A DNA stretch of 64,000 nt from Oligoflexia bacterium (lineage in GTDB: Bacteria; Bdellovibrionota; UBA1018). Of this stretch, positions 2,694-54,756 are shown piece by piece; within the stretch, counting starts at the first letter, position 1, and each line of letters begins with the position of its first letter. Under the pieces are notes generated by a model that saw only the letters and a program-made list of their open reading frames with translations, did not search any database and was not told where the DNA came from. The translations under genes and the position numbers were made by a program. The stretch lies in the NCBI GenBank assembly GCA_963758495.1, contig CAVWVI010000004.1, forward strand, positions 160,001 to 224,000. Reading direction: 5' to 3'.

Positions 2694-3767
2694 ATGCTAA
2701 AGAACGTAGGAATCAATAAAGTTAAGAGTATTATATTTGGACTTTGTATTGCCGGTGCAATTGGCTGTGGAAAAACCGACGAACATCGCCTAACTGATAC
2801 TGAAATCAAAGCAAAGGTACAGAGCTATCCCAAACGCGATATCACCTCTGACTCTCAGGTTCAAAAATACCTAAAGGACCATAAAGTCTATATCTCATTG
2901 ACGACTTCACCCACCCGTATCTCTAAGATTGATAATGTTTTAGATACACTGGAGCTTGAATATATAGAAAATATTCTCATCAATTTACCACTCCGCTTTG
3001 GAAGAGATGACTCAACCTACAAGGTCCCTTTCGAATTAATAAAAAAATATAATAACAAAGTACTTTTTCTTCGTCCTCCCAAGGACCTGGGTCCAATCAC
3101 CAAACTACTCCCCAGCACTCAATACATTAAGGAACAAGGCGATAAAGATGCAATTCTAATTTCCATTGACGACGATACGGCTTACCCAAGAGGAATGGTG
3201 AACGAAATGATTCAAAATATCGTACATCACCCTCATACAGTAATTGCTTCTTCAGGCCAAGATCTTCGCTTTTGGAACATTGATGACAAGAAAATGCCGA
3301 TTGCATCCAAAAATACCGGTAGACAATGTCGAGATGGAAAAGACTCCTACTGCGATGTCGTAGAAGGATTTGGAAGTATTGGATACCGCGTAGGCTTTAT
3401 CCATGTCGATCTGATGAAAAAGCTCTCTGCAAGTGAGTTCTCAAGGGACTGTTTCGTGTCTGATGATCTGGTCATCAGCTTTTCATTGGCTCTCTCCGGT
3501 ATAGATCGGTTGAAGATCTCAAACAAGTTCCTCGGACTCCACCGCATTCATCTATTTTCATATGGCTTCGAAGATGATGCATTACACAAAGGAGCAGGCT
3601 TGGACCCCTCAATGGCCAGCACTTCCGACATGAACAATATCAAGTATCAAAACTGTCATGCGAAATTAATTGAACTCACTTACAATAAGACAACTGCACA
3701 ATTTAACGATGTAAATCAAATCATTGCTGAATGGAATCAGAGGTATTTACCCACTACTCACCCCTAA
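2694..3767 (+). CDS. Putative lipoprotein glycosyltransferase (GT-A/GT2-like)
   Basis: Lipobox-like IAGAIGC, plus ISLTTSPTRI, DLGPITKLLP, IDDD (DxD) and SDDLVIS motifs. Confidence 0.65.
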   Translation: MLKNVGINKVKSIIFGLCIAGAIGCGKTDEHRLTDTEIKAKVQSYPKRDITSDSQVQKYLKDHKVYISLTTSPTRISKIDNVLDTLELEYIENILINLPLRFGRDDSTYKVPFELIKKYNNKVLFLRPPKDLGPITKLLPSTQYIKEQGDKDAILISIDDDTAYPRGMVNEMIQNIVHHPHTVIASSGQDLRFWNIDDKKMPIASKNTGRQCRDGKDSYCDVVEGFGSIGYRVGFIHVDLMKKLSASEFSRDCFVSDDLVISFSLALSGIDRLKISNKFLGLHRIHLFSYGFEDDALHKGAGLDPSMASTSDMNNIKYQNCHAKLIELTYNKTTAQFNDVNQIIAEWNQRYLPTTHP

Positions 3768-3790
3768 TGGTAAGCAGTTCCCTTAGGGCT
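3768..3790 (+). repeat. Dispersed intergenic repeat copy (TGGTAAGCAGTTCCCTTAGGGCT)
   Basis: Near-identical to copies at 26427, 27456, 47249 (rc), 53396 (rc) and 54730. Confidence 0.7.
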
Positions 3791-3940
3791 CGTATGCATG
3801 TTCAGCCGTCAAGACTAAAATGATCTTCCAAATCGATCTTTTTTTGGCTTTTTTTCGACGATCTCAACTTTTCCTAAAAAGAAATTTTCAAACCTTAGAC
3901 ATCCCGTGCTAAAAGACCCCTTTCGAAGGGGAGAATTCTT

Positions 3941-6133
3941 TTGAAATACATTCAATTACTACTGTGCACAGTTCTAATTAGCTCAAGCACCTTATTTGCA
4001 AATTCGACTTTAAAGGTTAGCACTGACTTAACGAATCGTGGCCCCTTTGAAATCACAAGTAGTGAATATCGGCTTCCCGCAGAAATTGACTATCATGTTT
4101 TAGCAGATCGAAAAACTGAGATCTGGGCAAGACTTTATCGCCCCACTGATTTATCGAATGGCCCGTATCCTTTGGTTGTTTTTCTTCATGGCAATCATGG
4201 AACCTGTGGCATTGGCTCACACCCAAGACAAGACTCGAATTGCGAATACACCATTACGGGAACTTGTCCAAGTGGTTACGTAGTCACACCTAATCACTTA
4301 GGTTATAGTTACCTTGCAGAAAATGTCGCATCCTGGGGTTTTCTAGTGATCTCCATCAATGCGAATCGCGGAATCACTTGTGGCGAGGGAGTTTCGGGTG
4401 ATTATGGACTCAATTTAGCAAGAGGTCGCCTTGTTTTAAAACATTTGAACATCCTCAGCTCCTGGGCCCACAACGGAGGAGCACCTCAATCACTTGGACT
4501 TGGGTCAGATGGACTTGTTGGTAAAATTGATTTCGCCCAAGTCGGGCTCATGGGACATTCACGTGGAGGAGAAGGCGTCAGGGCTGCTTATAATTTATAT
4601 CAAGATAGCGGCAGCCCATGGAAAGAGAGAATTCCTGAACTGCAAATTCGTGCGATTTTTGAAATTGGCGCCGTAGATGGTCAAACGAATCGAGTACTCA
4701 ATGCGAACGGAATTGCTTGGAACCAACTCCTTCCGATGTGTGACGGCGATGTCTCAGATCTACAAGGAAGGTATCCATTTGAGAGAATGCTTCTCAACTC
4801 CAATGAAGCAGAGATCGCTCAAAAATCAACTTATCAGGTTTGGGGAGCTAATCACAATTTTTTTAATACAGAATGGCAAACGAGCGATTCAGAGGGATGC
4901 TATCAACATAAGCCCATATTTAATCCTGATACATTCGAGTCCAAAGCTCAGCAGCTGATCGCACTAGCCAGTCTTCCTGCATTTTTTAGAAGTCATTTAA
5001 GCTCCTCCGCAGAGGAATTTAATCAAATCTTTAACCCCATTTCTCACCTTCCTGCTTCCATCCTTAACATTACCCACGTGACTAGAGACTTCACTGTCTC
5101 ACCCAGCCAAAAAGAGCAGATGCGCTTTGAAGAATTTGACCAAAATACAGGAATGGGCACTTATGGATTCCCTCATCTTTCTCAAGGACTCAAAATAATC
5201 CACATAAGAAGTGATCAAACTCTTCAGAGAGTAGCAAAGATCAGTTGGAATCTTGAGGGAGAAGATGTTTTTTTCCAGTCTGTTTGGTCTCGTGTAAACA
5301 ACGGACGTGATCTCCGTGATTTAAAAACATTGGACTTTAGAATCACTCGGCTCATTAACCCTCTCAACTCTAGCCCTTCTACAGACTTTTCAATTCAACT
5401 TTTAGGTGTTGGAGATCAGCTCTCTGAACCCGTTCAACTCAGTCGTTTTCTTAATTTGATCGGTCCAGCAATCCAAGGGAGTATCGTGCTTCAAACAGTG
5501 AGAATTCCTATTCAAGAATTTCGCAATATTGATTTGCAGCAGATCAGGGGCATCCGTTTTACATTTAACCGAACCCCATCTGGATCCATTGCTTTGGGAA
5601 ATATCCGATTTTCAAGATCTCTGGGTGCAGGTGGAGTAGGCTCAAGTCAGCTCAGCTTAGCAACGTCCAGGGAAACACCTAGAGAAATACGTAGAAAACC
5701 TATCTGGGAAACAATTTGGGGAACATCCAGACCCAATCATCTGTCATTTCCAAATAGAGCGATGAAGGAGTTTCCTCAACCTCGTATTCAAAAAATCGTC
5801 GCAAAAGAAAAAAAACGTATTCAAAGTATGAAAAGTATTCCAATGAGTTCCGCTCTTCATGGTCGTCCTTCAATTGAAATCCACATCAGCAGTGAAGTCC
5901 CCTTCGAAGTTAGGGATGCATTACCTCTGCTTAAAATAGGGAACTCTGAATTCAAACTGAGTCGATTTGGAGATCAGGGAGATCTTAAAAATTTGATATT
6001 CACTTTGGAAAATGAAAATTTTAACGAGCTTTCTCAAAACAGTCCTGTTCATATGTCGTATGATTCCACACCCGGCACAGAAATAGAGGAATCATACGAC
6101 TTAGGAAACCTAGATAAAAACATACTGCATTAA
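3941..6133 (+). CDS. Secreted alpha/beta-hydrolase with C-terminal accessory domains
   Basis: Signal peptide, PLVVFLHGNH, nucleophile elbow GHSRGG, CDGDV and GANHNFFNT. Confidence 0.85.
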   Translation: MKYIQLLLCTVLISSSTLFANSTLKVSTDLTNRGPFEITSSEYRLPAEIDYHVLADRKTEIWARLYRPTDLSNGPYPLVVFLHGNHGTCGIGSHPRQDSNCEYTITGTCPSGYVVTPNHLGYSYLAENVASWGFLVISINANRGITCGEGVSGDYGLNLARGRLVLKHLNILSSWAHNGGAPQSLGLGSDGLVGKIDFAQVGLMGHSRGGEGVRAAYNLYQDSGSPWKERIPELQIRAIFEIGAVDGQTNRVLNANGIAWNQLLPMCDGDVSDLQGRYPFERMLLNSNEAEIAQKSTYQVWGANHNFFNTEWQTSDSEGCYQHKPIFNPDTFESKAQQLIALASLPAFFRSHLSSSAEEFNQIFNPISHLPASILNITHVTRDFTVSPSQKEQMRFEEFDQNTGMGTYGFPHLSQGLKIIHIRSDQTLQRVAKISWNLEGEDVFFQSVWSRVNNGRDLRDLKTLDFRITRLINPLNSSPSTDFSIQLLGVGDQLSEPVQLSRFLNLIGPAIQGSIVLQTVRIPIQEFRNIDLQQIRGIRFTFNRTPSGSIALGNIRFSRSLGAGGVGSSQLSLATSRETPREIRRKPIWETIWGTSRPNHLSFPNRAMKEFPQPRIQKIVAKEKKRIQSMKSIPMSSALHGRPSIEIHISSEVPFEVRDALPLLKIGNSEFKLSRFGDQGDLKNLIFTLENENFNELSQNSPVHMSYDSTPGTEIEESYDLGNLDKNILH

Positions 6134-6138
6134 GCCTG

Positions 6139-7377
6139 TCACTGCTCGACGGCTTCTACAATAATTTTTAAAGTCTCTGCGTCCTTAATCTCTTCTGTCG
6201 ATGAGATATGAGAGATATAAAGATACTTTAACTCAGAAATATCTGTAAGAGTACCTTGACCAGAAAGAGGACCATAGACTTGAGATCGATCTGCTAGCCA
6301 GCCATCTTGGCCTACAAAAAAGGTAATGGATTGAGCTTGAGGATGGTCAATTCTCCAGTTAATTTTTTTAACGCGAATCGGAACTTCTCCTCCTAAATTA
6401 AAATTATTACTACCTCTGGGTTGATGGAGTGATACCGAAAGAGGAAAGGTATCTACAGAAAAAACCTGCAACTTTTGATCAGCAGCTATTCTCCACCAAT
6501 CTCTTTGAGTGGGTGCTGTATTCCCATCTACTCCCCATCTTCCTTTAAAACGAATCCATTCTTGCCCAGGTGTTGGATTCTCTAATGTACCGACGTTAAT
6601 TATATTTTCCCAACACTTCCATTGAGGTCCGTTACTGGCTGTTCTATCTAATATCCTATTAAAAAAATTGAAACTCTTCGGGTAACTCGCATGCCCATGA
6701 TACGCAGAGTAAACCACTGGATGGGTTTCTAATGCATACTCCAGTTCGTTTGCAGAATAGACTGCACCATAGCCATTTGAACCATGCCTATCGTAATAAG
6801 CATGATCGATTTTATATTGACCCCGCTCTTTTACTAAGTGGACATCAATATGTTCCCAATCTCCCTCATGAGTGCCAATAGGTCCTAAAATCCAAGTTAG
6901 ATTTCCATTGTATGTGTAAAAAAAAGAATATTGTATGACTGCCCCGTTTTCCTTCTGAATAAAGTTTGCATAACAAGGTGCCGTGACTGTTTGAATTTGC
7001 TCTTGGCCTACTAGAGAATGAATTCCTAAAGAAGGACCTTTTAAGGTTTTTAACCTGTCTTCCATACGAGGTGTGAGATAAGTATGTTCGTCAGAAATTT
7101 TTTCTAAATCCGCAATAGTCGGTTTATTTAAAATGAGTTCAGCTTCATTTTCATATTGAGTCGGATCTTTTTTCAAACTGCATCGCTCAATATACCAATC
7201 GACAGAACTCGGTAAATACTCTTCCCCTTTATAAAGCTTGACGAGAGGAGCAAATTTTTTAATCACATCATCCGCGAGTTCATGAGAAATTTCTTCTTCA
7301 GCCCCTAAAGCTGAACTGATTTGACTAAAAATAAAAAATAAAATTAGAATTTTTTTTTGAACTTCTTTTAACTTCAC
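6139..7377 (-). CDS. Secreted Vps62-related protein
   Basis: Signal peptide; KFAPLV..YLPSSVDWY, QYSFFYTYNG, HEGDWEH, HPVVYSAYHGHASY and WIRFKGRWG resemble the Vps62 domain. Confidence 0.7.
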   Translation of the reverse strand: MKLKEVQKKILILFFIFSQISSALGAEEEISHELADDVIKKFAPLVKLYKGEEYLPSSVDWYIERCSLKKDPTQYENEAELILNKPTIADLEKISDEHTYLTPRMEDRLKTLKGPSLGIHSLVGQEQIQTVTAPCYANFIQKENGAVIQYSFFYTYNGNLTWILGPIGTHEGDWEHIDVHLVKERGQYKIDHAYYDRHGSNGYGAVYSANELEYALETHPVVYSAYHGHASYPKSFNFFNRILDRTASNGPQWKCWENIINVGTLENPTPGQEWIRFKGRWGVDGNTAPTQRDWWRIAADQKLQVFSVDTFPLSVSLHQPRGSNNFNLGGEVPIRVKKINWRIDHPQAQSITFFVGQDGWLADRSQVYGPLSGQGTLTDISELKYLYISHISSTEEIKDAETLKIIVEAVEQ

Positions 7378-7469
7378 TGAAACACCCCCACTGTTTGACG
7401 CAGAAACCTACTTTTTTAAAAGACATTTGTCAATTTTTAGAATCAATGAATTTTTTAGAATCAGTGAGT

Positions 7470-8324
7470 TCACCTTAAACAAAATTGAGGTGACATTTGA
7501 AGGAGTTCGAAATCCAAGTCAGATATAGGGGCTTTAGAATAGGCTAAAGCCCTGAATGGTGCAGCATTGGTTGAGTTACGTACCCGTTCAAGCCAACGAT
7601 GATCAAGCGGATACTCGATGAGATCCATTTGATTTGAGGCAATCGTCGTTTCGGCTTTTTCACCGATTTCACAACCCCTACCCACAAAAAATCCTGCAAG
7701 TAAGAGGGTAGTACGCACCGCTGTAGAGCGCGTATAATTCGTAAGCAAACATGGGATATCAGACTTCAAACACTGCCGTACTCTGGAAAAATGCTCTAGC
7801 GTCCACATCTCCTGATTTCCTATAGGCGAATAGGGATCGTAAAAAATCGCATGGGGTGCCGAAGCATGCCCATTCTTGATTTGATCTCGAAAATCACCCA
7901 GATGAAGTTGCCATTGAATATGCGGTAAAATACTTACTTGATGACTTGTGAGTAATTCTCTTAAAACCTGCTCATAGGGAACTAAATAACCCAGCTCATG
8001 AGCATGTGAGAGTGCAAACTCAATCGGAGCAGTCGTTTGATCGAAACTATGAATCTCTACGTTCGTTTGACCCTGGCGAAGTGCTTCGATCGCTGCAAGT
8101 ACATTTGCAGCGGCTCCAAAACCCACATCCCAAATCACGAACTTCGGAGTCGTTTGACTACAGCGCTCAACTAAGCGTTGCTGTTCAACGTGAAGAACAT
8201 TGGCTTCAACCCACGGCCCTGTGACCGGATGAAAAGTCTCATGATGCGCCAAAGAGCGTAGACTCTTAATTCCAGTTTTGAGTGTAACAATTTCAAACTC
8301 GTTCAAAAATGATTGGCGTTCCAT
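7470..8324 (-). CDS. mnmD: tRNA (mnm5s2U34) methyltransferase, MnmD/MnmC-N-like
   Basis: ETFHP..GPWVEA, SAM-binding DVGFGAAAN and FYDPYSPIGNQEMWT. Confidence 0.75.
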   Translation of the reverse strand: MERQSFLNEFEIVTLKTGIKSLRSLAHHETFHPVTGPWVEANVLHVEQQRLVERCSQTTPKFVIWDVGFGAAANVLAAIEALRQGQTNVEIHSFDQTTAPIEFALSHAHELGYLVPYEQVLRELLTSHQVSILPHIQWQLHLGDFRDQIKNGHASAPHAIFYDPYSPIGNQEMWTLEHFSRVRQCLKSDIPCLLTNYTRSTAVRTTLLLAGFFVGRGCEIGEKAETTIASNQMDLIEYPLDHRWLERVRNSTNAAPFRALAYSKAPISDLDFELLQMSPQFCLR

Positions 8325-8402
8325 CTATCCATGAGTCTTTACCTGAGTGATCTACACGGGTCAATTACATTTCAGAGTTCAGAATTCGGGAGGCTGGATT
8401 CG

Positions 8403-8536
8403 GGGATCAGGTTCCTGGGATCAGGTTCCTGGAATCAGGTTCCTGGAATCAGGTACCCGGAATCAGGTACCCGGAATCAGGTACCCGGAATCAGGTTCCT
8501 GGAATCAGGTTCCTGGAATCAGGTTCCTGGAATCAG
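8403..8536 (+). repeat. 14-bp tandem array, 9 full units plus a partial (GGAATCAGGTTCCT; variants GGGATCAGGTTCCT x2, GGAATCAGGTACCC x3)
   Basis: Counted directly. No spacers. Confidence 0.95.
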
Positions 8537-8704
8537 CATTCTGAATCCTGCATCCCGGAGTCCCGGAATGACCGACTCCAGAAGATCTGCCTTACCCCTA
8601 TTTCCTGGAATTAGAGGTAAGGCTCCATCGCTCCTTTCTTTTTTCGAGAAACAGCCCCGTTGTCACTTGAGGGCTGTTCCTCAAAAATTCGAAAGGAGCT
8701 TATC
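8537..8704 (+). promoter_or_regulatory. Structured 5' leader; long hairpin 8630-8699 sequesters the Shine-Dalgarno of the four-helix-bundle gene
   Basis: Complementary pairs GCCTTACC (8589-8596)/GGTAAGGC (8616-8623), GCTCCTTTC (8630-8638)/GAAAGGAGC (8691-8699) and inner AACAGCCC/GGGCTGTT. Confidence 0.6.
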
Positions 8705-9010
8705 ATGGTCCATAATCAATTCAGGAGTTATCAGGTTGCCGTACAAGTCTTCAAAGAGTGTCGGTCACTCCAACTTCCATCGTATCTCAAGGATCAGTGT
8801 CTTCGTGCCGCATCCAGCGTTGTTCTCAACCTTGCAGAGGGTTCAGGCAAGGATTCCCCAGCTGATCGTAGACGCTTCTACCAGATCGCAATGGGTAGCA
8901 CTCGCGAAGTGCAAGCTATTTTAGATCTTGCTGATCGAGTTCCTGCTTCTCTCCGTGATCAAGCTGATCACCTCGGTGCTTGTGTCTACAAGCTCTGCCG
9001 GGCGCTCTAG
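8705..9010 (+). CDS. Four-helix-bundle protein (23S rRNA IVP / TIGR02436-like, Avd-related fold), copy 1, 101 aa
   Basis: Family signature LKDQCLRAASSVVLNLAEGSGK..ADRRRFYQIAMGSTREVQAILDL. AAGGAG RBS 6 nt upstream of ATG 8705. Confidence 0.9.
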   Translation: MVHNQFRSYQVAVQVFKECRSLQLPSYLKDQCLRAASSVVLNLAEGSGKDSPADRRRFYQIAMGSTREVQAILDLADRVPASLRDQADHLGACVYKLCRAL

Positions 9011-9024
9011 TTATTTTTCTATTC

Positions 9025-9058
9025 ATTCTCTCTTGAGAGTAAGTTCTCAAGAGAGAAT
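9025..9058. terminator. 14-bp perfect-stem hairpin between convergent genes
   Basis: ATTCTCTCTTGAGA-gtaagt-TCTCAAGAGAGAAT. A homologous stem with a different loop lies at 12692-12724. Confidence 0.7.
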
Positions 9059-9128
9059 TAGATTTTCTTTTATTGGAGTTGATCACGTCATTAATTAATA
9101 GGTTTCGTAAGGATAAATTATCCTCCAT

Positions 9129-9593
9129 TTAAAAATAAAATTTAATCCCTAAATTAAAACCAACCCCTCGTGCTAAATAACTCCAAAATGGTAGTGAGTA
9201 ACCCACCTCTGAAGACATTACAAAATGTCGAGAATCGTTTATCGCATATTCAGTTCCAATGGCATAATTTAAGCCAAGAATATTTGAACTCTCAAATACA
9301 ATAAAGGCACTAGACTTAAAATATGCAGCAAAGGAGGAAAAATCTATAAGTCTAGACATGGTTCCTAAAGTAAACATTGAATAAGCGGTACTTCCTTCAG
9401 GTGAAGGAAGTAATTCAGAAAATTGCGCAAACATAGAGATATGATTACGATCTGACAAAGGAGAATTTATTCCTACGGTGTAGCCGACTTCTGAATTAAT
9501 GGCACTAGGTCCAGCCATTAAAGAGAAAGTAGATGGAACTGAAGCCATACAGGTCGTAGAAAATATTAAACACAAAAATAAAATTTTTTTCAT
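9129..9593 (-). CDS. Small outer-membrane beta-barrel-like protein
   Basis: Signal peptide, alternating amphipathic strands and C-terminal aromatic BAM-type signal (GVGFNLGIKFYF). Confidence 0.65.
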   Translation of the reverse strand: MKKILFLCLIFSTTCMASVPSTFSLMAGPSAINSEVGYTVGINSPLSDRNHISMFAQFSELLPSPEGSTAYSMFTLGTMSRLIDFSSFAAYFKSSAFIVFESSNILGLNYAIGTEYAINDSRHFVMSSEVGYSLPFWSYLARGVGFNLGIKFYF

Positions 9594-9644
9594 AAAATTT
9601 CTATTAAACTTGAGGTTAGTTTTTATCTAGCCTCAAACATAAAA

Positions 9645-9926
9645 CTATCCAATTGATTTTAGAATCTCTTCTAATATCTGTACTAACGTGTCCTTTGTTG
9701 TAGTAACGCACTCACTTTCTCCACCCACTGACCACACTGAAACTTTGATCATTCCATCTTTTATGGGGGGATCAATACCAATTCGCTTTTCTCCTACACT
9801 GAAAATCCGCAATTGATAATCTTTAAATTCCTTTAAGAATTGTAAATTACTATGCCTTCTTGCGAACGTTTCAATCTCATGATCAATATCTTCAAATAAG
9901 TTTTTTTCTTCTGGCCAATCACTCAT
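9645..9926 (-). CDS. Probable cognate immunity protein (93 aa, MSDWPEEK...)
   Basis: GGAGGTG RBS before ATG 9926. The start overlaps the toxin stop (ATGAGTGA). Small cytoplasmic protein directly downstream of a toxin. Confidence 0.65.
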   Translation of the reverse strand: MSDWPEEKNLFEDIDHEIETFARRHSNLQFLKEFKDYQLRIFSVGEKRIGIDPPIKDGMIKVSVWSVGGESECVTTTKDTLVQILEEILKSIG

Positions 9927-11253
9927 AAAACACCTCCGGTAATTGTCTCGTATTTTTAAAATTTGAAGCATCAATGGACTTCTCTAGTCTGTATTGAATT
10001 GCACCGCTAGGAGCTTCAAGTGGCATTTCAGTAAAATCATTATGAAATTGCACACTCCCTCTACTCATGGGGGTTCCCGATGGAACATGCACATCTGAAA
10101 TAAGAGTTGGAGTTTTTGGTAGTGCATATTTAATTCGGATTCGTTCTGGAGTTAGTCCTTGAATCGAACTCTTCTTCATAACCCAAGCTTTAACCTTATT
10201 TTCTTCACAATGAACTCTTACCCATTTCGTCTTTTTCACGGTATCGAAGAAAACAACATAGGATCCATGTTCATAAGGCGGCAGATAAGTACCAGGTCCT
10301 TGTGTGAATGCAGCATTAACCTGCGTGGCCTCTCGAATGGAGGTTATGCGATGGCTTTTCTTCCAATCATTTAACAAATGTCCAGCGTGACCAATTAACC
10401 GCTCACCCTCACGTATCGCAATTTCAGCAGCATGCTTATCGGCTATCATGTGCGATGCACGTTGGAAAACCTTAGCCATACCACGTGTTGCCTGGACCAT
10501 GGATCGACCACCACCCGCAGTAACCGCTCCAACGAAGGCAAGGCTTCTTTCAACTAAGGAAAGCTGTAATCCAGTAACTAAGTTCTTCCCTGAGAATAAT
10601 TCATAAGTACTTCGGGCAAATCCAGATACGGGATCAAGACCAACCGCGATATCAAGAAACCCCTTAGCTAGTTCTTTATAAAAATTTGCATCCTCTCCGG
10701 CTCCACGTGAAGAAGACAGATCCGCCTCTTCTACTGAGATTAAACCAAACTCACGTGCCTGTTTTCGGTTTTCATAGTAGGGGTTAATTTTATAGAGGTC
10801 TGTATATATACGTTTTAATTCTTCCTTAATAACACCTTCATTTGCTGTAAACTTGTACGGAAGCTCTAGAGGGTCCGAAATAGAATTAACGTCGATATGC
10901 GGATTGGGCGCTTTTTCTAGCAAATCTTGAGTGAGTCGATTGAGCATATCGTCCACTGATTCTTCAACGGAAAAAGAGTGAATACTTTTCGATAGTTGAA
11001 TGGAAGCTTCAACTACCGCTCTCTTCTGTTCAAGTGCAAGTGCCTCACGTTTTGATGCCTCTGCCTGGTTGCGAATTCCTGAATAATCTATAGGTGCAGC
11101 AGGATGAAACACAGAATTCATATTAGAGGAGCCAATTGAATTACTTACCATTGGACCACCTCCTTCACCACCTATAGTCGTGTGAACATTAAAGCCATCA
11201 GTAGCGTAAACAGAACTAGAGAGTAACGACAATAAAACACTAATTAATCTCAT
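9919..11253 (-). CDS. Secreted polymorphic toxin: signal peptide + pre-toxin TG (PT-TG) domain + C-terminal toxin domain
   Basis: PT-TG-like FLDIAVGLDPVSGFARSTYELFSGKNLVTGLQLSLVERSL. C-terminus PPY..WVRV..WVM..GLTPERIRIKYALP..VHVPSGT..G.V..SGAIQY resembles polymorphic-toxin tips. Confidence 0.75.
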   Translation of the reverse strand: MRLISVLLSLLSSSVYATDGFNVHTTIGGEGGGPMVSNSIGSSNMNSVFHPAAPIDYSGIRNQAEASKREALALEQKRAVVEASIQLSKSIHSFSVEESVDDMLNRLTQDLLEKAPNPHIDVNSISDPLELPYKFTANEGVIKEELKRIYTDLYKINPYYENRKQAREFGLISVEEADLSSSRGAGEDANFYKELAKGFLDIAVGLDPVSGFARSTYELFSGKNLVTGLQLSLVERSLAFVGAVTAGGGRSMVQATRGMAKVFQRASHMIADKHAAEIAIREGERLIGHAGHLLNDWKKSHRITSIREATQVNAAFTQGPGTYLPPYEHGSYVVFFDTVKKTKWVRVHCEENKVKAWVMKKSSIQGLTPERIRIKYALPKTPTLISDVHVPSGTPMSRGSVQFHNDFTEMPLEAPSGAIQYRLEKSIDASNFKNTRQLPEVFYE

Positions 11254-11797
11254 GTTTGCGCTCCTCTGTTAATTTCTCTAGCTCAGCAGCAAGGTCTGTT
11301 TTCATTCTCTGAACTGTGTGTCTCAGGTCTGATTGAACTAAGGGATCTCTTAAGTTAAGACCCTGCTGCATATAGTTCTGCATTAGGTTACGCACATCAG
11401 CTGTATGTCTATCTTTAGCTTCATTTTCGAGGTGATCAAAACGAAAATTGACCTGCTCAACTCTCGTACGCTCAGCCTCAGCGGAGGCTAAATTTGCTTG
11501 TTGTCTTTGAAGTTCAGCAGCCTGTTGCGAGGCATAGTTACGTTCGCAATCAGCCAGATTTTTCTCCTTTTCCTGCCATATCCTATGTTGATTGTGAGCA
11601 ACTAATCCTGGAAATACTCCAAAAACCCCACCCCATCCACCAGTTGCAATGCCCCCGTACGTAGCTATACCTGTGGAAATGCCACTAAAAGTTAAACATA
11701 AGTTTCTAAACTTATCCCTTTCTTCTCTCTCTTTCTCACAAATTGCAAAGGCACTTGCACTATATGACAGCAACAATAAAACTATAATTTTCTTCAT
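11240..11797 (-). CDS. Secreted protein with glycine-rich hydrophobic segment and coiled coil
   Basis: Signal peptide (ASAFA) and GISTGIATYGGIATGGWGGVFGVFPGLVA. Its 3' end overlaps the toxin start. Confidence 0.75.
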   Translation of the reverse strand: MKKIIVLLLLSYSASAFAICEKEREERDKFRNLCLTFSGISTGIATYGGIATGGWGGVFGVFPGLVAHNQHRIWQEKEKNLADCERNYASQQAAELQRQQANLASAEAERTRVEQVNFRFDHLENEAKDRHTADVRNLMQNYMQQGLNLRDPLVQSDLRHTVQRMKTDLAAELEKLTEERKHEIN

Positions 11798-11799
11798 GA

Positions 11800-12327
11800 T
11801 TATTTGCGCCCAGTTAAATTATTAATTTCTTCCTGGGTCCATCCCCGAACATCACGAAGGAAAGTGATAGCTTCCTGATTATTGGGATCAAGCATAATAA
11901 CCATCGTGGCCCAATACTCTTTAAGAATTGGGTCCTGCTCCTGGTTCATAGCATTAAGAATTTCGTCAAGTGTCTCAACTCGATTTCTTGCTTCTTCTTC
12001 ACGTCTTTTCTGCTCAAACTCTCTACGCCTTTGAGCATCCCGGGTGACTTTCTCTTCCCATTCCCGCCTAGCTTTATCATTGGCTTCTCTAGCCTGCTGA
12101 CGTTCCCATTCTGCTTTCTCAATAATACTTCGTTCTAGCTCAAGCCTTCTTTGCTCTAAAATATGCCTTGCTTTATGCTCTTCTACTTCTACTTTCCTTC
12201 TATTACTCTCTACATCCATACGAACTTGTCGTTCACGTTGCTCTCTCATAGGGTCATGAGACATTCCACTTCCATTATTACCAGCTAAGGCGCTAGATGT
12301 TAATAATGTTAATAAAATGATATACAT
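11800..12327 (-). CDS. Secreted E/R/Q-rich coiled-coil protein, first gene of the toxin operon
   Basis: Signal peptide (SSALA), AGGAG RBS; its stop is 2 bp from the next start. Confidence 0.75.
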   Translation of the reverse strand: MYIILLTLLTSSALAGNNGSGMSHDPMREQRERQVRMDVESNRRKVEVEEHKARHILEQRRLELERSIIEKAEWERQQAREANDKARREWEEKVTRDAQRRREFEQKRREEEARNRVETLDEILNAMNQEQDPILKEYWATMVIMLDPNNQEAITFLRDVRGWTQEEINNLTGRK

Positions 12328-12691
12328 TTGTACTCCTAATGAATCCCTAATTCCTTAACTTCTAAAAAAATATTTTTAATCTTTTATTATAGAGTTATAT
12401 AGAATTCAATAATATTTATAAATATTTATAATAACGACAATACAGCCGTACAATTGTTATGATTGACTCTCAATTTGAGAAGCAAGATTTTATAATCCCT
12501 CATATCACTTTCATTTTTTAGCAATAATCGTGAGAAATTTACGATTCGCCTTTCACGGTACTCTGAGATATGGTTTTAAATATTATTAGGAAAATTGGAT
12601 TTTCAAATATAGTTAAAAGCATTCTTCTTTTTAACTTTGCTCTCAAAGACAGAATTCCCTGAGTGTTAGGATTTGCTAATTAACGCAATAC

Positions 12692-12724
12692 TTCTCTCCT
12701 GAGAGATTTGTTCTCAAGAGAGAA
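12692..12724. terminator. 3' hairpin of module copy 2
   Basis: TTCTCTCCTGAGA-gatttgt-TCTCAAGAGAGAA (one G-U pair on the minus-strand transcript). Confidence 0.65.
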
Positions 12725-12739
12725 TGAATAGAAAAATAA

Positions 12740-13045
12740 CTAGAGCGCCCGACAGAGCTTATAGACACAAGCACCAAGGTGATCAGCTTGATCACGGAGA
12801 GAAGCAGGAACTCGATCAGCAAGATCTAAAATAGCTTGTACTTCGCGAGTGCTGCCCATTGCGATCTGGTAGAAGCGTCTACGATCAGCCGGAGAATCCT
12901 TACCAGAACCCTCCGCAAGGTTGAGAACCACGCTGGATGCGGCACGAAGACACTGATCCTTGAGATACGATGGAAGTTGGAGTGACCGACACTCTTTGAA
13001 TACTTGTACTCCAACCTGATAACTCCTGAATTGATTATGGACCAT
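12740..13045 (-). CDS. Four-helix-bundle protein, copy 2, 101 aa
   Basis: 100/101 aa identical to copy 1 (A12G), with the same RBS and leader. Confidence 0.9.
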   Translation of the reverse strand: MVHNQFRSYQVGVQVFKECRSLQLPSYLKDQCLRAASSVVLNLAEGSGKDSPADRRRFYQIAMGSTREVQAILDLADRVPASLRDQADHLGACVYKLCRAL

Positions 13046-13229
13046 GATAAGCTCCTTTCGAATTTTTGAGGAACAGCCCTCAAGTGACAACGGGGCTGTT
13101 TCTCGAAAAAAGAAAGGAGCGATGGGGCCATACCTCTAATTCCAGGAAATAGGGGTAAGGCAGATCTTCTGGGGTCGGTCATTCCGGGACTCCGGGATGC
13201 AGGATTCAGAATGCTGGGCTCAGGTTCCA

Positions 13230-13425
13230 AGGAACCTGATTCCAGGAACCTGATCCCAGGAACCTGATTCCAGGAACCTGATTCCAGGAACCTGATTCCA
13301 GGAACCTGATTCCAGGAACCTGATCCCAGGAACCTGATTCCAGGAACCTGATTCCAGGAACCTGATTCCAGGAACCTGATTCCAGGAACCTGATTCCAGG
13401 AACCTGATTCCAGGAACCTGATTCC
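13230..13425 (-). repeat. 14-bp tandem array, 14 units (GGAATCAGGTTCCT on the minus strand; two GGGATC variants)
   Basis: Counted directly as AGGAACCTGATTCC units on the plus strand. Confidence 0.95.
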
Positions 13426-13451
13426 CGAATCCAGCCTCAAGCTCTATTTTG

Positions 13452-16400
13452 TCATTCAGCATCAACCAAATTAAGAGGAAGTTCTACTATAAAAGTGGAT
13501 CCTATGCCCAGCTTACTTTCGAGCAAAATACGCCCTCCGTGAGCTTGAACAATTTGTTGAGAAATATAGAGCCCCAATCCAAATCCACCGAAATGCCGAA
13601 CTGAGATCGCGCGCTCATAGCGACCAAAAATCCTTGCTTGATCCTTTTCATCAATCCCGATTCCAAAATCTTGAACTGTCAACTTTGCATGATGATTCTT
13701 TACTTCAACCTTAACTTTAATGGGCATTCCAGCCCCATATTTGATTGCATTCGTGAGCAAGTTGACGACAACTTGTTCAATTCGGAGATAGTCCCATCGA
13801 CCACTCACTTTCTCTTTCACCTCAAGCTCGACCTTGCAATTCGCCTGTGACCATTGTGTCTGGTAACGCTCTACTACTTCACAAACTAGCTTGGATAAAT
13901 CAATGACCTCAACATTGAGCCTCAGATGTCCGGTACTAATCCTTGAGACATCCAATAAATCTTCCACCAGTTTGGAAAGTCGGTCCACTTGCTGGTCTGA
14001 AGATTTAAAGAGGTTCAATAAACTCTTTTGAACTGTAGAAGTACCTAAGCTTGGGTCAAAGGTAGGCACTTTAGCAATCAGACCTTTTAAAAGGTGCAAC
14101 TGCATTTTCAGCGGTGTAAGAGGAGTTTTCAATTCGTGGGCAGCAATCATCATGAATTCATCCCGAATCTGAAGTGCTTTCTCGGCTACGGAACGGGCTT
14201 GTTGCTCTTGCTGAATCGAAAATGCAACTTCAAGTGAAATCGCCGCTTGCGAAGCAAGTAGATCAAGAACCGTAACATGTTCCGACGTAAATGCATGAGT
14301 CATGAGGTTATTCTCAAGGTAAAGCAATCCGACCACCCTCGTTCCACGAGTGATCGGGAGGCAAAGCACTGATTTAGGTTGAGCTTTTAAAAGATACCTA
14401 TCCGACTGGAACTTTCCACGTCCGGCGGGAGTGCGAGCATCTCCCAGAATCACCTTTTCTCGGGCGCGTAGAACGAATTGGATGATGGATTCTGAAACAA
14501 GCGAGGAATCTAGCGGAGTCACAGATGCTATTCTCATTTCAATGCCTATTTCGGTAGATAGAGCTTCCGCCTCGATTCGGGGTTTCCCATCGTGAATCAA
14601 AAACAGGTAACCTCTCTGTGCACCACTTTTCTCAATGACAACTTGGACAAGTCGACATATGAGATTTTTGAGCTCAATTTCCCCAGAAATACTCTGGGAC
14701 GCTTTAATCACTGAAAGTAGATCCAAGTGTTCAGGTCGAGTAGCAAAAGTACCTGTACGCTCGGCTTCTGGATGTTCCGCAAGTTGAGGGTAAATTCGCT
14801 CGAGTTGCTTCACTTTTCCGTCGGCCCCCCAACGAGCATAGCAAGCGCGAGCGTCCCTCAGGTAAACTTCTCCAATACGGGTGAAACCACGACCTAGATA
14901 ATAACGAGCAGCAAGATCAAAACCCAATGCTTCATTTTGCGTCAAGCCCTGCTCACGCGCTCTACTAATTGCTTGTTCATAGAGATGTTCAGCTTCAGGA
15001 TGATTCCCTTCGATACGAGCGATTTCAGCTGCTAGAAGTGCATATTTATACTGAAAGTTCTCTGGGGAGTACTCCGACCAAGCACGAAAATGCTCACATT
15101 CTTCACGAAGGGCATTGAGGTGAACTTCACGCTCAACAGACGTAGCTTGATTGAATAGCGCGGCCCTCGTAAGCCCATGAAAATAATGATACTCAGGAAC
15201 TTCCACAAAGGAAGGGGAAGCCCATAGTAATTCCTTAGCTTTCTGTGCGGCTTTAAGCGCCTCATCGTAATTATTTGATAGAAATCGCGCCATCAGTTTC
15301 CAAATGTAATACCAACAAATGCTAATCGCCAAAGAGGCCCGGTTCATTTCAAAATGAGCTTCATAGTGCTCTTCATTAAAATTCTCATCGTTGAACGTAG
15401 AAAAATGATCCGTACGTCCTTGAAGATTCATTATTAATCGTTGTTGGCTGGTAATGATGAGCTCGACCAGCCGAAGTTTTACTTTTCGAACGAATGCTAA
15501 CCCTTCTTCAGAAATACGGTAGACTTCTGAAAGTGGAGCACCTCGCACAATATGGAAGGTGACAAGATTATTATAGTAGTAGCAGACATAGGTCAGGTCT
15601 CCCGTTTGCAACGCTATTTGACGAGCCCTTTGTAAAATATCGTGATTGAGATCAAGGGGTTGTGTCCATGCACTCACTAAGGAAAAATTGATCTGTGCTC
15701 TAGCCTGGTAAACACTCAGCCCATTTCGACCGGTTAGGCTACAGCCGAGCTTTGCGAATCGATAGGCTTCACGATACCGTCCGAAAAAGTGTACTAATAC
15801 CATTCCGAGAAGAACATAACCATAGCCTGAATTGTTTACGTTGCCGAAAAGCACCATTAGATTGGCCACTCGACAAATAAGAAGACAGAGCAGGTTGCCG
15901 CTTGTAGTAAGCACTGTGGTATAGAGCGCAATCAGAACTTCCATAATAATGATTGCATCGGGATCAGTCATAAGAGGAAGATCAATCAGCTCTTCAATGG
16001 TTCGAGTGCCTATATTTCGCTCAAGTTGCTCGTATTCTGCCTGGGGCTCAGCCCAATTGGGATGAGGTAACCAGTGGATTCCGAAATGACGTAAAAAGGC
16101 TAGACCGATTTCGACCGCCTTACGATTATCACCCTGCACTCCACAAAGCACAATCTCGGCGCAAGCGACATCAGCGAGATGCCGCTTAGTCTGTCCCCGA
16201 TCCCGCAACTCAGCTAACAAATCCTTCGCTAATTCGAGATTTCCTATGAGAAATTCAGCCCGTGCTCGCTCCAAATGGAGTTCAAAAGTCAGCACATAAT
16301 GAGAACTCCAAGAGTCTGTTTGCAACAACAACATCCCCATAGAAAAGTAGTTCACTGCCGCAATATATGCAGCCGCAGCCTTAGCTTTGCGTCCTGCAAT

Positions 16401-18635
16401 CAGGCTCAATTCAGAAAGATGCTGACGCTCCTCTAATGTAAGGAGAGCATGCCCTGGCGTGAATTGATTGACGATTTCAAAGATACGATCATTCAGATCG
16501 GCTTCTGAGATGCTTTTCAACATCAGCCTTCCAATACGCAAATGATATCCTGGGCGCTCCTCTTGAGGAATGAAAGAGTAAGCTGCTTGTTGAATCCGAT
16601 CGTGAGCGAAAAGATAAGTATTTCCTGTCCGAAGGAGTAACCCTTCTTGAAGCGCTCCGAACAAGGATTGGTGAATAGCTCCCTCATCCTGTTCACTCAC
16701 TCTAGCTAGCAAACTCGCATCGGTAGAATTCCCTACGCTCGCTACTAGCTTTAATATTTCTTGTGTTTCGGGAGCTAAGTGACCAATTCTTGCGACCATC
16801 AGATCTACAACATTGTCAGTATATCCCTTGCTTCGAATTCGCTTTAAATCCCACTTCCATTGACTCAAAACATAATCAAAGAAAAGTAAGCCATCATGCT
16901 GCAATTCCGTTAAGAATTGGATGGCAAAGAATGGATTTCCCCCCGTTTTTTCAAACAGCAACTCTGCCAAATCCGACACTTGCTCTGGCAATTGTCGTAA
17001 CGTATTGGCAACAAGGTGTGTTAGGTGTGGAAGTGACAGGGGAAAAAGGACAATATGATCCACCAGACGTCTCGCAGCACGAATCTTTTCGATTGTGATC
17101 AGGAGCGGATGGGGAGACACGACCTCTTTGTCACGATAAGCACCGATAATAAAAAAGGGGACCGAACTCAGTTCGGTAATGAGATGTTCTAGAAGTTGCA
17201 AGCTTCCTTGATCGGTCCATTGAAGGTCATCTAAAAAAAGAACCAGCGGATGCTCGGCGCGTGCAAATACTCCGACAAAGCGTGTGAAAACCAATTGAAA
17301 TCGCTCTTGATCTTGCAATAATCCGAGCGTGGGTACTTTTGGCTGCGGTCCTAAGATCAGTTCGACTTCAGGAATCAGATCAGTAATAAGACGAGCATTA
17401 GCTTCCAGCGCAGCAACGAGTCGATTTCGCCACTGGGAGAGGGTTTGTTCGTTTTCTCCTAGAAATTCGCTTATGAGTGATCGAAACGCCTGAGCCAGAG
17501 TTGCATAAGGAATATTTCGTTTATATTGATCAAACTTGCCGCTCAAAAAGAAGCCTCGTACCCCGACGATCGAACTTAAAAGTTCTTGAACTAGAGCAGA
17601 TTTACCGATGCCAGAGTAGCCTGACACTAATGTAAGTTCCGCTCGATTCGTATTAACCACTCGATGAAAGGCATTTTTGAGCACACCGAGTTCCATCTCA
17701 CGGCCATAAAGGATCTGAGGAATTTGTAACTTATCGGAAATGTCATGCGTACCTAGTACAAAAGTTTCAATACACCCAGCGAGTAGAAGCTGAGTTCGGC
17801 AAAGATTTAGATCTTCCTTAACACCACTGGCTGTTTGATAACGATCCTCGGCCATTTTCGACAAAAGCTTGAGCACAATGTCAGAGATGGGCTGAGGAAT
17901 ATGAGGAATAACAGTTCTGGGTGAGGGGGCAGGACGAGCAACATGACAGTGAACCCATTCAAGCGGATCTTGCGCATCAAAGGGAAACCTCAGGGTCAGC
18001 ATCTTAAAGAAAACAACACCCAGTGAATAAAGATCACTTCGATTATCGATCACTCGATTCATGCCCCCCGTCTGCTCAGGTGACATGTAAGGAAAGGACC
18101 CTTCGATAATTCTGGACTTCTGAATAGGTCGTCGTTCACGTGGGAGCTGGGTGGCAATTCCAAAGCCCGTAATCTTGACCTCACCAGTGGTAGGATGAAT
18201 TAAGATGTTCTCGGGCTTAATATCTTTGTGAATGATGTTCTCACGGTGAATTTCGGAAAGTGCCTCAGCGATCTGTTCGCCCACACGCAAAAAATCCACA
18301 GACTCCATGGGTGAATTAAGTAAGCTGTTGAGTGAAATTCCATCAAAATCTTCGTAAACTAATGCGGGTAATCCTTCATAAACTGTTCTCTCCAGGGGCT
18401 TCAAGACAGCTCGAACACTCAATTCACGAGCGAATTCATACTCGCGGGTGAGCAATTCAACATCACTTTGAGATCGAAAAGATGAGAGCACTTTAAGAAG
18501 TACAAGGTGTTGATGATCACGCCAAAAGCCCCGATAAAGAACCATTCGATCATCTCGATAGACCGTCTGGCGAGGAGTAAATCGTCCAAAATTTGGAACC
18601 ACATTTTCGCCTGCTTGTTTAATCAGCGGATACAT
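13452..18635 (-). CDS. Hybrid Ser/Thr kinase - AAA ATPase - GAF - histidine kinase sensor (ORF open to 18680)
   Basis: HKDIKPENIL, YMSPEQTG, Walker A GYSGIGKS, LFLDDLQW, GAF (SVLCLPI..LYLEN), H-box AHELKTPL, NLLTNAIKY and GFGLGL. Confidence 0.92.
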   Translation of the reverse strand: MYPLIKQAGENVVPNFGRFTPRQTVYRDDRMVLYRGFWRDHQHLVLLKVLSSFRSQSDVELLTREYEFARELSVRAVLKPLERTVYEGLPALVYEDFDGISLNSLLNSPMESVDFLRVGEQIAEALSEIHRENIIHKDIKPENILIHPTTGEVKITGFGIATQLPRERRPIQKSRIIEGSFPYMSPEQTGGMNRVIDNRSDLYSLGVVFFKMLTLRFPFDAQDPLEWVHCHVARPAPSPRTVIPHIPQPISDIVLKLLSKMAEDRYQTASGVKEDLNLCRTQLLLAGCIETFVLGTHDISDKLQIPQILYGREMELGVLKNAFHRVVNTNRAELTLVSGYSGIGKSALVQELLSSIVGVRGFFLSGKFDQYKRNIPYATLAQAFRSLISEFLGENEQTLSQWRNRLVAALEANARLITDLIPEVELILGPQPKVPTLGLLQDQERFQLVFTRFVGVFARAEHPLVLFLDDLQWTDQGSLQLLEHLITELSSVPFFIIGAYRDKEVVSPHPLLITIEKIRAARRLVDHIVLFPLSLPHLTHLVANTLRQLPEQVSDLAELLFEKTGGNPFFAIQFLTELQHDGLLFFDYVLSQWKWDLKRIRSKGYTDNVVDLMVARIGHLAPETQEILKLVASVGNSTDASLLARVSEQDEGAIHQSLFGALQEGLLLRTGNTYLFAHDRIQQAAYSFIPQEERPGYHLRIGRLMLKSISEADLNDRIFEIVNQFTPGHALLTLEERQHLSELSLIAGRKAKAAAAYIAAVNYFSMGMLLLQTDSWSSHYVLTFELHLERARAEFLIGNLELAKDLLAELRDRGQTKRHLADVACAEIVLCGVQGDNRKAVEIGLAFLRHFGIHWLPHPNWAEPQAEYEQLERNIGTRTIEELIDLPLMTDPDAIIIMEVLIALYTTVLTTSGNLLCLLICRVANLMVLFGNVNNSGYGYVLLGMVLVHFFGRYREAYRFAKLGCSLTGRNGLSVYQARAQINFSLVSAWTQPLDLNHDILQRARQIALQTGDLTYVCYYYNNLVTFHIVRGAPLSEVYRISEEGLAFVRKVKLRLVELIITSQQRLIMNLQGRTDHFSTFNDENFNEEHYEAHFEMNRASLAISICWYYIWKLMARFLSNNYDEALKAAQKAKELLWASPSFVEVPEYHYFHGLTRAALFNQATSVEREVHLNALREECEHFRAWSEYSPENFQYKYALLAAEIARIEGNHPEAEHLYEQAISRAREQGLTQNEALGFDLAARYYLGRGFTRIGEVYLRDARACYARWGADGKVKQLERIYPQLAEHPEAERTGTFATRPEHLDLLSVIKASQSISGEIELKNLICRLVQVVIEKSGAQRGYLFLIHDGKPRIEAEALSTEIGIEMRIASVTPLDSSLVSESIIQFVLRAREKVILGDARTPAGRGKFQSDRYLLKAQPKSVLCLPITRGTRVVGLLYLENNLMTHAFTSEHVTVLDLLASQAAISLEVAFSIQQEQQARSVAEKALQIRDEFMMIAAHELKTPLTPLKMQLHLLKGLIAKVPTFDPSLGTSTVQKSLLNLFKSSDQQVDRLSKLVEDLLDVSRISTGHLRLNVEVIDLSKLVCEVVERYQTQWSQANCKVELEVKEKVSGRWDYLRIEQVVVNLLTNAIKYGAGMPIKVKVEVKNHHAKLTVQDFGIGIDEKDQARIFGRYERAISVRHFGGFGLGLYISQQIVQAHGGRILLESKLGIGSTFIVELPLNLVDAE

Positions 18636-18996
18636 GACCGCAATACTCTCGAACGATCTTATAAAGGACATCCAGCTCAACAGGCTTTTTAATAATACAT
18701 TTGGCTTTGATACCTTGAGTTCGATCGCTAAATGCCGTTACAACAACCACAGGGATAGAAGCAAGAGTCACATCACTGTCAAGCGCTTTCACAAAGCCCC
18801 AGCCATCCATAACGGGCATCATTAAGTCGACCAAAACTAAACAGGGACGCGGAATTTTAAGTAACGCTTCAATACCTTCTTTTCCGTTGTTTGCAGTAAA
18901 AACGACGTATCCCTCTAACTCTAAAGCGACTTGTAATGTCTCGCAGATTGCTTGATCGTCTTCAACAATTAGAACACTAGCGCATCGCACCGTCAT
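18619..18996 (-). CDS. Single-domain response regulator (receiver)
   Basis: VLIVEDD, DLMMPVMDG, VVVVTA and IKKP motifs. Overlaps the kinase start. Confidence 0.9.
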   Translation of the reverse strand: MTVRCASVLIVEDDQAICETLQVALELEGYVVFTANNGKEGIEALLKIPRPCLVLVDLMMPVMDGWGFVKALDSDVTLASIPVVVVTAFSDRTQGIKAKCIIKKPVELDVLYKIVREYCGHVSAD

Positions 18997-19203
18997 TCTC
19001 CTCGTAAACAACTCGATAATTAATAAAGGCGAACTACCTCATTTGTCTTAATATCTCAGAACAATCCATAGCATAATCCGTTCTCAAATTGGCCTAAAGA
19101 ATGAGCTCAGGAATTTTAACTCTATAAACGATTCAATAATGCAAGTACATAGCTGATCTCATTTAAATCCTTATTCCTAATAATCAAACAAAAATAGAGC
19201 CCA

Positions 19204-26431: not shown

Positions 26432-26450
26432 GTAGGTCCTTTAGGGCTGT
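26427..26450 (+). repeat. Dispersed intergenic repeat copy (TGTAAGTAGGTCCTTTAGGGCTGT)
   Basis: Direct repeat of 27456-27480. Confidence 0.7.
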
Positions 26451-26483
26451 AGAACTCCAGAATAAATGATCTGAATATTTAGA

Positions 26484-27455: not shown

Positions 27456-27556
27456 TGGTAAGTAGTTCCTTTAGGGCTGTTGACAATCACAGCAAGGAGT
27501 CCTGTTGCGCCGTAAAGATTTGGATTCCCAGTGCAACAGGACTCCTTGCTGTGATT
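27456..27556 (+). repeat. About 100-bp structured repeat: dispersed motif plus 24-bp perfect inverted repeat (27485-27508/27533-27556)
   Basis: Homologous to 53321-53419 in reverse orientation, including the loop sequence. Confidence 0.85.
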
Positions 27557-27761
27557 AAGTTTAACCTAGGTCTCACTTCGCCCCATAAGAACTATTACAC
27601 ATTAACCAATTAAATTGGTCAACTAAAATCGGTGTGCATAGTGTCCATTTAAAAAATGTTACACTACCAAAGTACACTTAATCAGGTACACTTAAGCATA
27701 ATCAGCATAAGGGGTATCTTTGCTTGTTAATTATCAAGAAGAATGGATACTTAGAGGGATA

Positions 27762-53315: not shown

Positions 53316-53320
53316 AGGGT

Positions 53321-53436
53321 AGCATTGCAAGGAGCCCTGTTGCGCCGGGAATCCAAAGCTTTACGACTCAACAGGGCTCCTTGCAATGCTTGTCCACAAC
53401 CCTAAAGGAACAACTTACGATAAAGGAACTGCTTCC
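53321..53436 (-). repeat. Second structured repeat: 22-bp perfect inverted repeat (53321-53342/53369-53390) plus dispersed motif and an extra partial motif
   Basis: Homologous to 27456-27556. Confidence 0.85.
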
Positions 53437-54750: not shown

Positions 54751-54756
54751 ATTACG

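Follow-up and report, generated by a model that had tools for sequence, protein, structure and literature searches.

Architecture of the twin modules

The window analysed here is a stretch of 64,000 nucleotides from an Oligoflexia bacterium (assembly GCA_963758495.1, contig CAVWVI010000004.1, positions 160,001 to 224,000; source genome G000, 3.66 Mb, 92% complete). The subject of this report is the segment at 8374–13438 of the window, in which two copies of a small module, each with a gene for a four-helix-bundle protein, face inward across a five-gene operon for a putative secreted toxin (Table 1). The two facing modules of about 0.7 kb described in the original prediction were confirmed: the arms at 8403–9060 and 12689–13355 form an inverted alignment of 667 nt with 93.7% identity, and a 527-nt core from which the arrays are left out is 95.6% identical. 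Read inward, each arm opens with a repeat tail, which is followed by small hairpins, then by the 70-nt palindrome, a gene of 101 codons and a 3' hairpin. The window holds the only two full copies in G000, and the chance of two copies in this genome falling within 5 kb of each other is approximately 0.003.

The tails had been described as 14-bp arrays and such units are present on both sides; their true period, however, is 7 bp, the 14-bp unit being a dimer of 7-mers with CNG in a 7-bp phase, and the left tract begins further out than had been noted. The left flank CAGAATTCGGGAGG was considered as a relic of an IS4-like insertion sequence (IS) end and rejected, as it continues the 7-bp phase and fails a scan allowing four mismatches.

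Assignment of the module gene to the 23S-intervening-sequence family was borne out, with the curated cut-offs passed for both TIGR02436 (64 bits, cut-off 24) and PF05635 (61 bits, cut-off 33.8); a subfamily profile also matched the structure of Xcc0516 (PDB 2GSC) with an E-value of 1.2e-9. By analogy with Xcc0516 and the Avd fold, the 101-amino-acid protein most likely assembles into a ring and binds the structured RNA of its own module or single-stranded DNA. The two gene copies differ at 13 of 72 synonymous sites versus 1 of 231 non-synonymous sites (p = 4e-8), and the leader at 3 of 171 positions (p = 1.5e-5 by comparison with the synonymous sites). This pattern of substitution indicates that the protein is under purifying selection, and that the leader is either constrained as well or has been recently converted.

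The leader is structured, as had been predicted, but the structure is mainly that of one palindrome (z = -3.9), which hides the ribosome-binding site: AAGGAG lies in its 3' arm and is paired by the 5' arm. Judged from this pairing, the palindrome may mask the ribosome site against read-through transcription and so silence read-through translation; the 3' hairpins may insulate the cargo. The left arm of the palindrome has a five-codon frame behind a reverse ribosome site, and the loss of a divergent partner gene there was considered; this is not needed, because the clade has many single-gene builds with this palindrome. An Rfam scan of 7500–14500 returned no family at gathering score, with sub-threshold matches to miRNA-type hairpins only. 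A search of viral contigs for the module gave one distant locus, and phage carriage is not indicated at that sensitivity.

Table 1. Features of the segment at 8374–13438 of the window, from left to right
Position	Strand	Feature	Remarks
8374..8533	+	Left repeat tail, outer arm	CNG in 7-bp phase; nine 14-bp units; start near 8374
8534..8629	+	Structured spacer, two small hairpins	Part of the 171-nt leader
8630..8699	+	Leader palindrome, AAGGAG in 3' arm	Weak promoter-like match (9/12) at 8660–8688, in loop and arm
8705..9010	+	Four-helix-bundle gene, copy 1, 101 aa	TIGR02436 / PF05635
9025..9058	+	3' hairpin, copy 1	Terminator-like
9129..9593	-	154-aa protein, signal-peptide-like start	Paralogue (29%) behind the toxin locus on contig C1
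9645..9926	-	Putative immunity protein; 93 aa if started at the ATG, which has a good ribosome site, or 109 aa from an upstream TTG	Position behind the toxin; weak support from complex prediction
9919..11253	-	444-aa polymorphic toxin with signal-peptide-like start and PT-TG domain	Tip at the C-terminus folds like the NAD(P)+ glycohydrolases Tne2, Rhs1-CT and Tse6
11240..11797	-	185-aa protein, signal-peptide-like start	Paralogue (28%) ahead of the toxin locus on contig C3
11800..12327	-	175-aa charged helical protein, signal-peptide-like start	Operon begins with this gene
12328..12690	-	AT-rich non-coding stretch	Promoter-like sites; probable operon promoter
12692..12724	-	3' hairpin, copy 2	Loop unlike that of copy 1
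12740..13045	-	Four-helix-bundle gene, copy 2	Single residue change, A12G
13051..13120	-	Leader palindrome, copy 2	
13217..13438	-	Right repeat tail	Fourteen 14-bp units; starts 13 nt past the stop codon of the kinase-AAA-GAF-histidine-kinase gene

A toxin operon lies between the arms

The cargo comprises five genes on the minus strand, four of them with signal-peptide-like starts as judged by eye and none of them encoding a transposase. It had been described as visibly AT-richer; its GC content is indeed lower, but only modestly so (0.382 versus 0.422 +/- 0.025 for the genome), and 5.9% of genome windows of the same size are equally low.

The central gene has the characteristics of a polymorphic toxin, namely a PT-TG pre-toxin domain, a tip that is common to unrelated carriers, and paralogues with differing downstream genes. 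The tip (9922–10437) has 717 relatives and occurs C-terminally on carriers of up to 5,964 amino acids. No Pfam family fits it, and a search of PDB sequences with the tip profile gave no match. A structural model built from an alignment of 80 sequences reached a pLDDT of 93, by comparison with only 33 for a single-sequence fold. A Foldseek search with this model returned nothing at E <= 0.001, the best hit being Tne2 at 0.011; direct comparison matched Tne2 (6B12; Z 10.0, rmsd 2.3 over 105 residues), Rhs1-CT (6XTD; Z 8.6, rmsd 3.0 over 113 residues) and Tse6 (4ZV4; Z 7.3), with the next-best row at Z 4.9. Although sequence identity to these three proteins is only 9–15%, the modelled fold makes NAD(P)+ glycohydrolase (NADase) the likely activity of the tip. 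The window protein differs from these effectors in having a signal-peptide-like start and PT-TG in place of PAAR or Rhs. The tip marks a large family that has an NADase fold and is not covered by a fitting Pfam model.

The 93-amino-acid product of the next gene found only itself in a homologue search. Complex prediction with the toxin tip scored 0.50 against 0.02 for the best control, with runs agreeing in at least 53% of contacts and a partner pLDDT of at least 80. Of 157 solved pairs, 116 reached the mark applied, as did 2 of 215 mismatched ones; scores of 0.60 or below were seen in 18 of the 157 solved pairs and in both passing mismatches. The model thus gives weak support to this protein as the immunity partner of the tip, so that, of the toxin-immunity cassette that had been proposed, the toxin is upheld by its fold and the immunity function more weakly.

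G000 contains three paralogous PT-TG toxin loci (C3:1638993-1641813, C4:1071024-1073292 and C1:88577-91026), which have related neighbours and differing downstream genes; the C4 paralogue, which has rplI and dnaB on its two sides, contains an internal stop. None of them, nor one further locus in genome G020, has a module. The suggestion of a special link between modules and polymorphic toxins is not upheld by these loci, which indicate that the operon family spreads independently of the modules.

The module is a dispersed element in related genomes

That the module is a dispersed element, as originally proposed, is clear from its distribution: matches were found in 39 of the 116 genomes of the order and in 87 of 401 of the phylum, and three of the five genomes searched individually had 14, 20 and 24. 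In genome G116, L272–L283 are 12 of 14 dispersed modules on one chromosome that closely resemble each other, with other long palindromic repeats around and sometimes interrupting them.

Among the matches listed in the order (150 of 162), 38 neighbour pairs are divergent within 400 bp, with one inward pair at 29 bp, the window pair, one outward pair at 3.5 kb and one tandem pair making up the other arrangements. Divergent pairs have a single common palindrome with a ribosome site on either arm. At L074:939-2491 four consecutive genes are arranged divergent-convergent-divergent around two long palindromes, and outside Bdellovibrionota a distant inward-facing pair with a 1.55-kb spacer was found at L115:2536-4469.

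In 66 distinct hairpins from upstream of the gene in the subfamily, a ribosome-site word was present near the start in 60 and a complementary word in the 5' arm in 51, both counted with loose four-letter words and no control; GTGA/TCAC stands at the core of 32 of the palindromes, where 14 would be expected. Complementarity between upstream and downstream tails exceeded the 99th percentile of mismatched pairs at 15 of 54 single-gene loci, the two window copies being among the 54. The strongest mirror-image tails, of approximately 75 bp, belong to L237, a single-gene sister that groups with the window copies (support 93) in a quick tree of 96 columns; this tree was relied on solely for the clade of the window, L147–L149 and L237. 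Since the tails are outermost in every build, the best interpretation of the window arrays is that they form the outer arms of a single symmetric unit.

Modules occur just inside the ends of insertion sequences

The original prediction also held that paired copies capture or swap cargo. In partial support, inward-facing pairs have differing contents at several places, and one such unit is present at two loci of a single genome. At the first of these, L270 (G120:C59), a 2,451-bp IS4-like element carries an intact 471-amino-acid DDE transposase between two inward-facing modules; the best NCBIfam match of the transposase is IS4, below the cut-off of that family. Terminal repeats of the IS family lie directly outside both modules and the flanks are alike at 10 of 11 positions. 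Stand-alone members of this IS family are approximately 1.75 kb long, with terminal repeats of approximately 27 bp in at least one genome and duplications of 9–11 bp. The second locus of the same genome, L046, has other flanks; it retains the two modules, but of the transposase gene the two ends alone, the middle having been deleted. The occurrence of this unit at two loci indicates that one doubled unit was copied along with its contents. A member of the same IS4-like family is present in G000 (C1:532941-535279; L291 and L315). Its inverted ends are unusually long (230 bp, 99% identical); it also has a 63-bp inverted repeat further in, a perfect 10-bp duplication and a single internal stop in the transposase gene.

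Modules are also found just inside the ends of a second IS family. L147 and L148, of the same clade as the window copies, represent one intact, 88%-identical module (98.9% alike between the two) in two contexts, and beyond the tail each has an end that starts with CAGGG. ISAs1 ends begin with CAGGG (PMC11946415), and the same start was seen in ISAs1 ends at L347 and L348. At L148 an ISAs1 transposase (78 bits, cut-off 70) terminates a few bases from the 3' hairpin of the module, and a group II intron (L148:10-2030) sits in the CAGGG end, behind a T-rich stretch and ahead of the module.

Fourteen pairs of sister copies were examined. One of them (L004/L022 in G035) is a 0.95-kb divergent-pair cassette present at two loci, 97.7% alike, with imperfect inverted ends starting GG and 8-bp flanks alike at 7 of 8 positions; we take this unit to be ISL3-like. 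IS-like ends with a duplication were confined to this pair, and a CAGGG end adjoined one more (L147/L148).

G000 itself has a second inward-facing pair, eroded, on contig C3 (C3:229879-231098; L314). The end seen at L147 and L148 recurs here in two inverted copies: the 55-bp, ISAs1-type inverted ends are 93% identical, one starting with CAGGG; CNG-repeat remnants lie behind the ends, one arm retains a 35-nt piece of the module gene (86%), and the interior holds MNT and HEPN genes. The flanks are alike at 7 of 9 positions, a weak duplication. The genes on either side, encoding an FHA-GGDEF protein and MutL, lie within 100 bp of each other in 11 of 29 family relatives, and excision of the relic leaves 47 bp. 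(mutL was present in the flank of 15 of the 29; 14 were scored as having none, one of which, L343, by eye seems to overlap mutL.) The C3 relic is thus a bracketed cargo at a site that is empty in relatives, and agrees weakly with what defines a mobile insertion cassette. Other repeat-rich inserts behind the gene at this site were seen at L318, L319 and L323.

Further inward-facing pairs were found. The nearest relative of the window unit, L149 (protein 86% identical), has two modules separated by a 300-bp spacer, the second of them truncated by the end of the contig. The two gene copies of L149 differ at 11 of 273 nt and those of the window at 14 of 273, by comparison with 64–65 differences between L149 and the window. 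Inward pairs with spacers of 27–87 bp were found at L151/L247 (counted once), L152, L166, L310 and L311. Literature searches, which covered main texts, gave no description of modules outside rRNA, in IS ends or as twin brackets; the main text of a paper on heptamer repeats does not contain the four-helix-bundle term (PMC4679880).

Origin of the window unit

The reading that we tentatively prefer is that the segment is the remnant of a non-autonomous element resembling a mobile insertion cassette, with the two four-helix-bundle modules as its long arms. In a first step, of which relatives provide examples, a module would settle just inside an IS end, pointing inward; both ends could gain a module by virtue of the inverted-repeat nature of IS ends, or through copying of one arm from the other. 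DDE transposition would then move the unit together with whatever lies between the arms, a step seen once, as its product. The transposase gene would subsequently be lost or replaced by cargo: the secreted NADase toxin operon in the window, and the MNT-HEPN pair on C3. For the window copy, the outer IS tips, probably of the ISAs1 type in this lineage, would have eroded, leaving the unit fixed. The window unit would accordingly share its origin with the IS-ended twin units, and is probably now an immobile remnant. Ordinary DDE transposition is the likeliest vehicle; the RNA-based or otherwise new route that had been suggested was not borne out, since the cases with readable ends show DDE-type IS ends and target duplications.

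As had been noted at the outset, gene and profile scans of the segment, arms included, found no transposase or recombinase. A substantial set of observations weighs against the cassette proposal. A target duplication, its absence likewise noted at the outset, is not found outside the arms, where the longest word common to the outer flanks is 5 nt. The outer ends of the unit give no match with four or fewer mismatches to the IS4-like end of this genome and no CAGGG end; the best agreement between the inner end of the C3 relic and the left flank (17 of 30) is equalled at 4,092 sites in the genome and so is background. An ISAs1 transposase was not found in the 92%-complete G000 assembly, which contains six other DDE_Tnp_1 matches. 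An empty site between the kinase gene and mnmD, suggested as a check, was also not found: seven mnmD orthologues have other neighbours within 1.5 kb, and no close relative was among those searched. The nearest sisters L149 and L237 have no CAGGG end, and L046 has one recognisable IS end only. Across the matches listed in the order the window pair is the only inward pair on the kilobase scale, although fragmented assemblies hide long pairs. Most of the 14 sister-copy pairs terminate in repeat tails and, with IS-like ends at only two, the bulk of module dispersal is not accounted for. The cargo is marginally AT-rich (6th GC percentile), and the toxin paralogues in G000 and G020 stand without modules.

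For the window copy, an explanation in which arms and cargo never moved together does nearly as well, and we regard it as possible though less probable. The twin module would have been resident as an ordinary symmetric build, and a self-spreading toxin operon would later have entered the neutral gap between the 3' hairpins, gene conversion keeping the arms alike. The short-spacer inward pairs and the 300-bp spacer of L149 provide such builds; three other sites, of which one lies between rplI and dnaB, have toxin loci without modules; pairs are approximately 95–96% alike within the window and within L149 but 76% between them, as under concerted evolution; and introns, ISs and palindromes gather around modules. 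This account leaves unexplained, however, the IS ends outside the modules of L270 and the C3 relic and the duplication represented by L270 and L046, and the short-spacer pairs are old paralogues (blocks of 67–86% identity), unlike the pair in the window.

A further, improbable reading would make the module itself an active hairpin-targeting element. Its Avd-like ring would recognise ends with single-stranded structure, IS tips and terminators among them, and place or copy the module just inside both ends of ISs from unrelated families, making gene-capturing cassettes with toxin and toxin-antitoxin operons among predatory bacteria.

Somewhat more doubtful is the idea of two separate events, in which one module inserted beside an operon already in place and its second copy came from a local hop or from inverted duplication, so that the bracket has no meaning. 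Modules 3.4 kb apart do lie around ordinary genes at L080, in a genome with 24 matches, and G000 has 24 inverted-repeat alignments with spacers below 15 kb. By contrast, just two full copies exist in G000, a distribution that would seldom arise by chance, and the window copies lack the 3' repeat tail present in the L080 copies; the build with the tail outside recurs in L149, L046, L270 and C3.

Only marginally less likely is the original view of self-driven mobility, according to which the Avd-like protein and the module RNA act together with either a reverse transcriptase or an HUH nuclease of the host, and pairs capture, swap or invert toxin cargo as their function. Strong selection on the protein and leader, the absence of IS ends from most dispersed copies and the excess of GTGA/TCAC hairpin cores would suit it, and G000 does have five reverse-transcriptase matches and one Y1 transposase match. 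None of these is linked to the modules, however, and no reverse transcriptase, template or variable repeat was found within 3000–20000; the RNA route is hinted at by the fold alone, both units with readable ends carry DDE signatures, and toxins are not tied to modules. RecA-type inversion between the 0.67-kb arms is possible in principle, but as the promoter region of the operon lies inside, between the two hairpins, a flip would probably have little effect.

Finally, an assembly artefact through fold-back of reads is scarcely credible, even though palindromic modules are frequent at contig ends in relatives, because nearly all differences between the copies are synonymous, the array lengths and hairpin loops differ, and the same build is present in independent assemblies.

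If the preferred origin as a cassette remnant is correct, an orphan module becomes part of the IS ends of at least two families, and the resulting units may enclose conflict genes such as the NADase toxin operon and the MNT-HEPN pair. How 23S-intervening-sequence and Avd-like genes spread and what they do is an old question, and the main gain comes from L270/L046 and the C3 relic, which open the spread of this orphan family to direct testing; the gain from the window is smaller.

Other repeats and neighbouring genes

The neighbour of mnmD (6139–7377) encodes a secreted-looking protein with a Vps62 domain (PF06101). A second family of dispersed intergenic palindromes with a common flanking motif is present in the window at 26418–26453, 27458–27567, 53309–53428 and 54730–54755, with inverted pairs of related copies at C2:17026 and C3:732446. 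The window also contains a 12-bp tandem repeat (53127–53234) within a short open reading frame (52944–53315), and a 125-bp direct repeat (62727–62851 and 63876–64000; 97% identical) over the starts of two neighbouring genes. The close inverted-repeat alignments of G000 include a 2.66-kb, 91% identical pair at C3:1349024-1356312.

Comparison with known systems

PF05635 proteins are reported to resemble Avd (PMC10053308). The module protein shares its Avd/Xcc0516-like character with diversity-generating retroelements, but no reverse transcriptase, template or variable repeat lies beside the module. In the 23S rRNA intervening sequences, such as the IVS/S23p of Coxiella, a PF05635 gene lies inside complementary ends (PMC4990558). 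The family and this arrangement are the same here (compare the mirror-image tails of L237), but the window unit lies outside rRNA genes and holds two genes and 3.6 kb of cargo in its loop.

TIME-COMP elements are described as composites bounded by MITEs, miniature transposable elements with inverted repeats (PMC13367494). In the window, as in these and in composite transposons, unrelated cargo lies between two copies of a small element in inverted orientation; the arms, however, encode a four-helix-bundle protein and no transposase, and have no ends or duplications of their own.

Mobile insertion cassettes of the MIC231 type consist of IS ends around passenger DNA and are moved in trans. The window unit would work much as such a cassette or a MITE-bounded composite does. 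Its copy lacks both IS tips and a target duplication, however, and is therefore not classed among the cassettes, although, with five genes, it too has passenger genes in the place of the transposase. IS231 elements can carry passenger genes beside the left end, and duplications in the IS4 family are approximately 10 bp (PMC2266710). L270 and the C3 relic match the build of IS ends around passenger DNA, and differ from known cassettes in that both sub-terminal regions hold the same module, forming arms of 0.45–0.67 kb with a gene in each. L270 is an IS with passenger modules and offers a natural and complete test object, with IS ends, a duplication, an intact transposase, a module in each arm and a deleted copy in the same genome.

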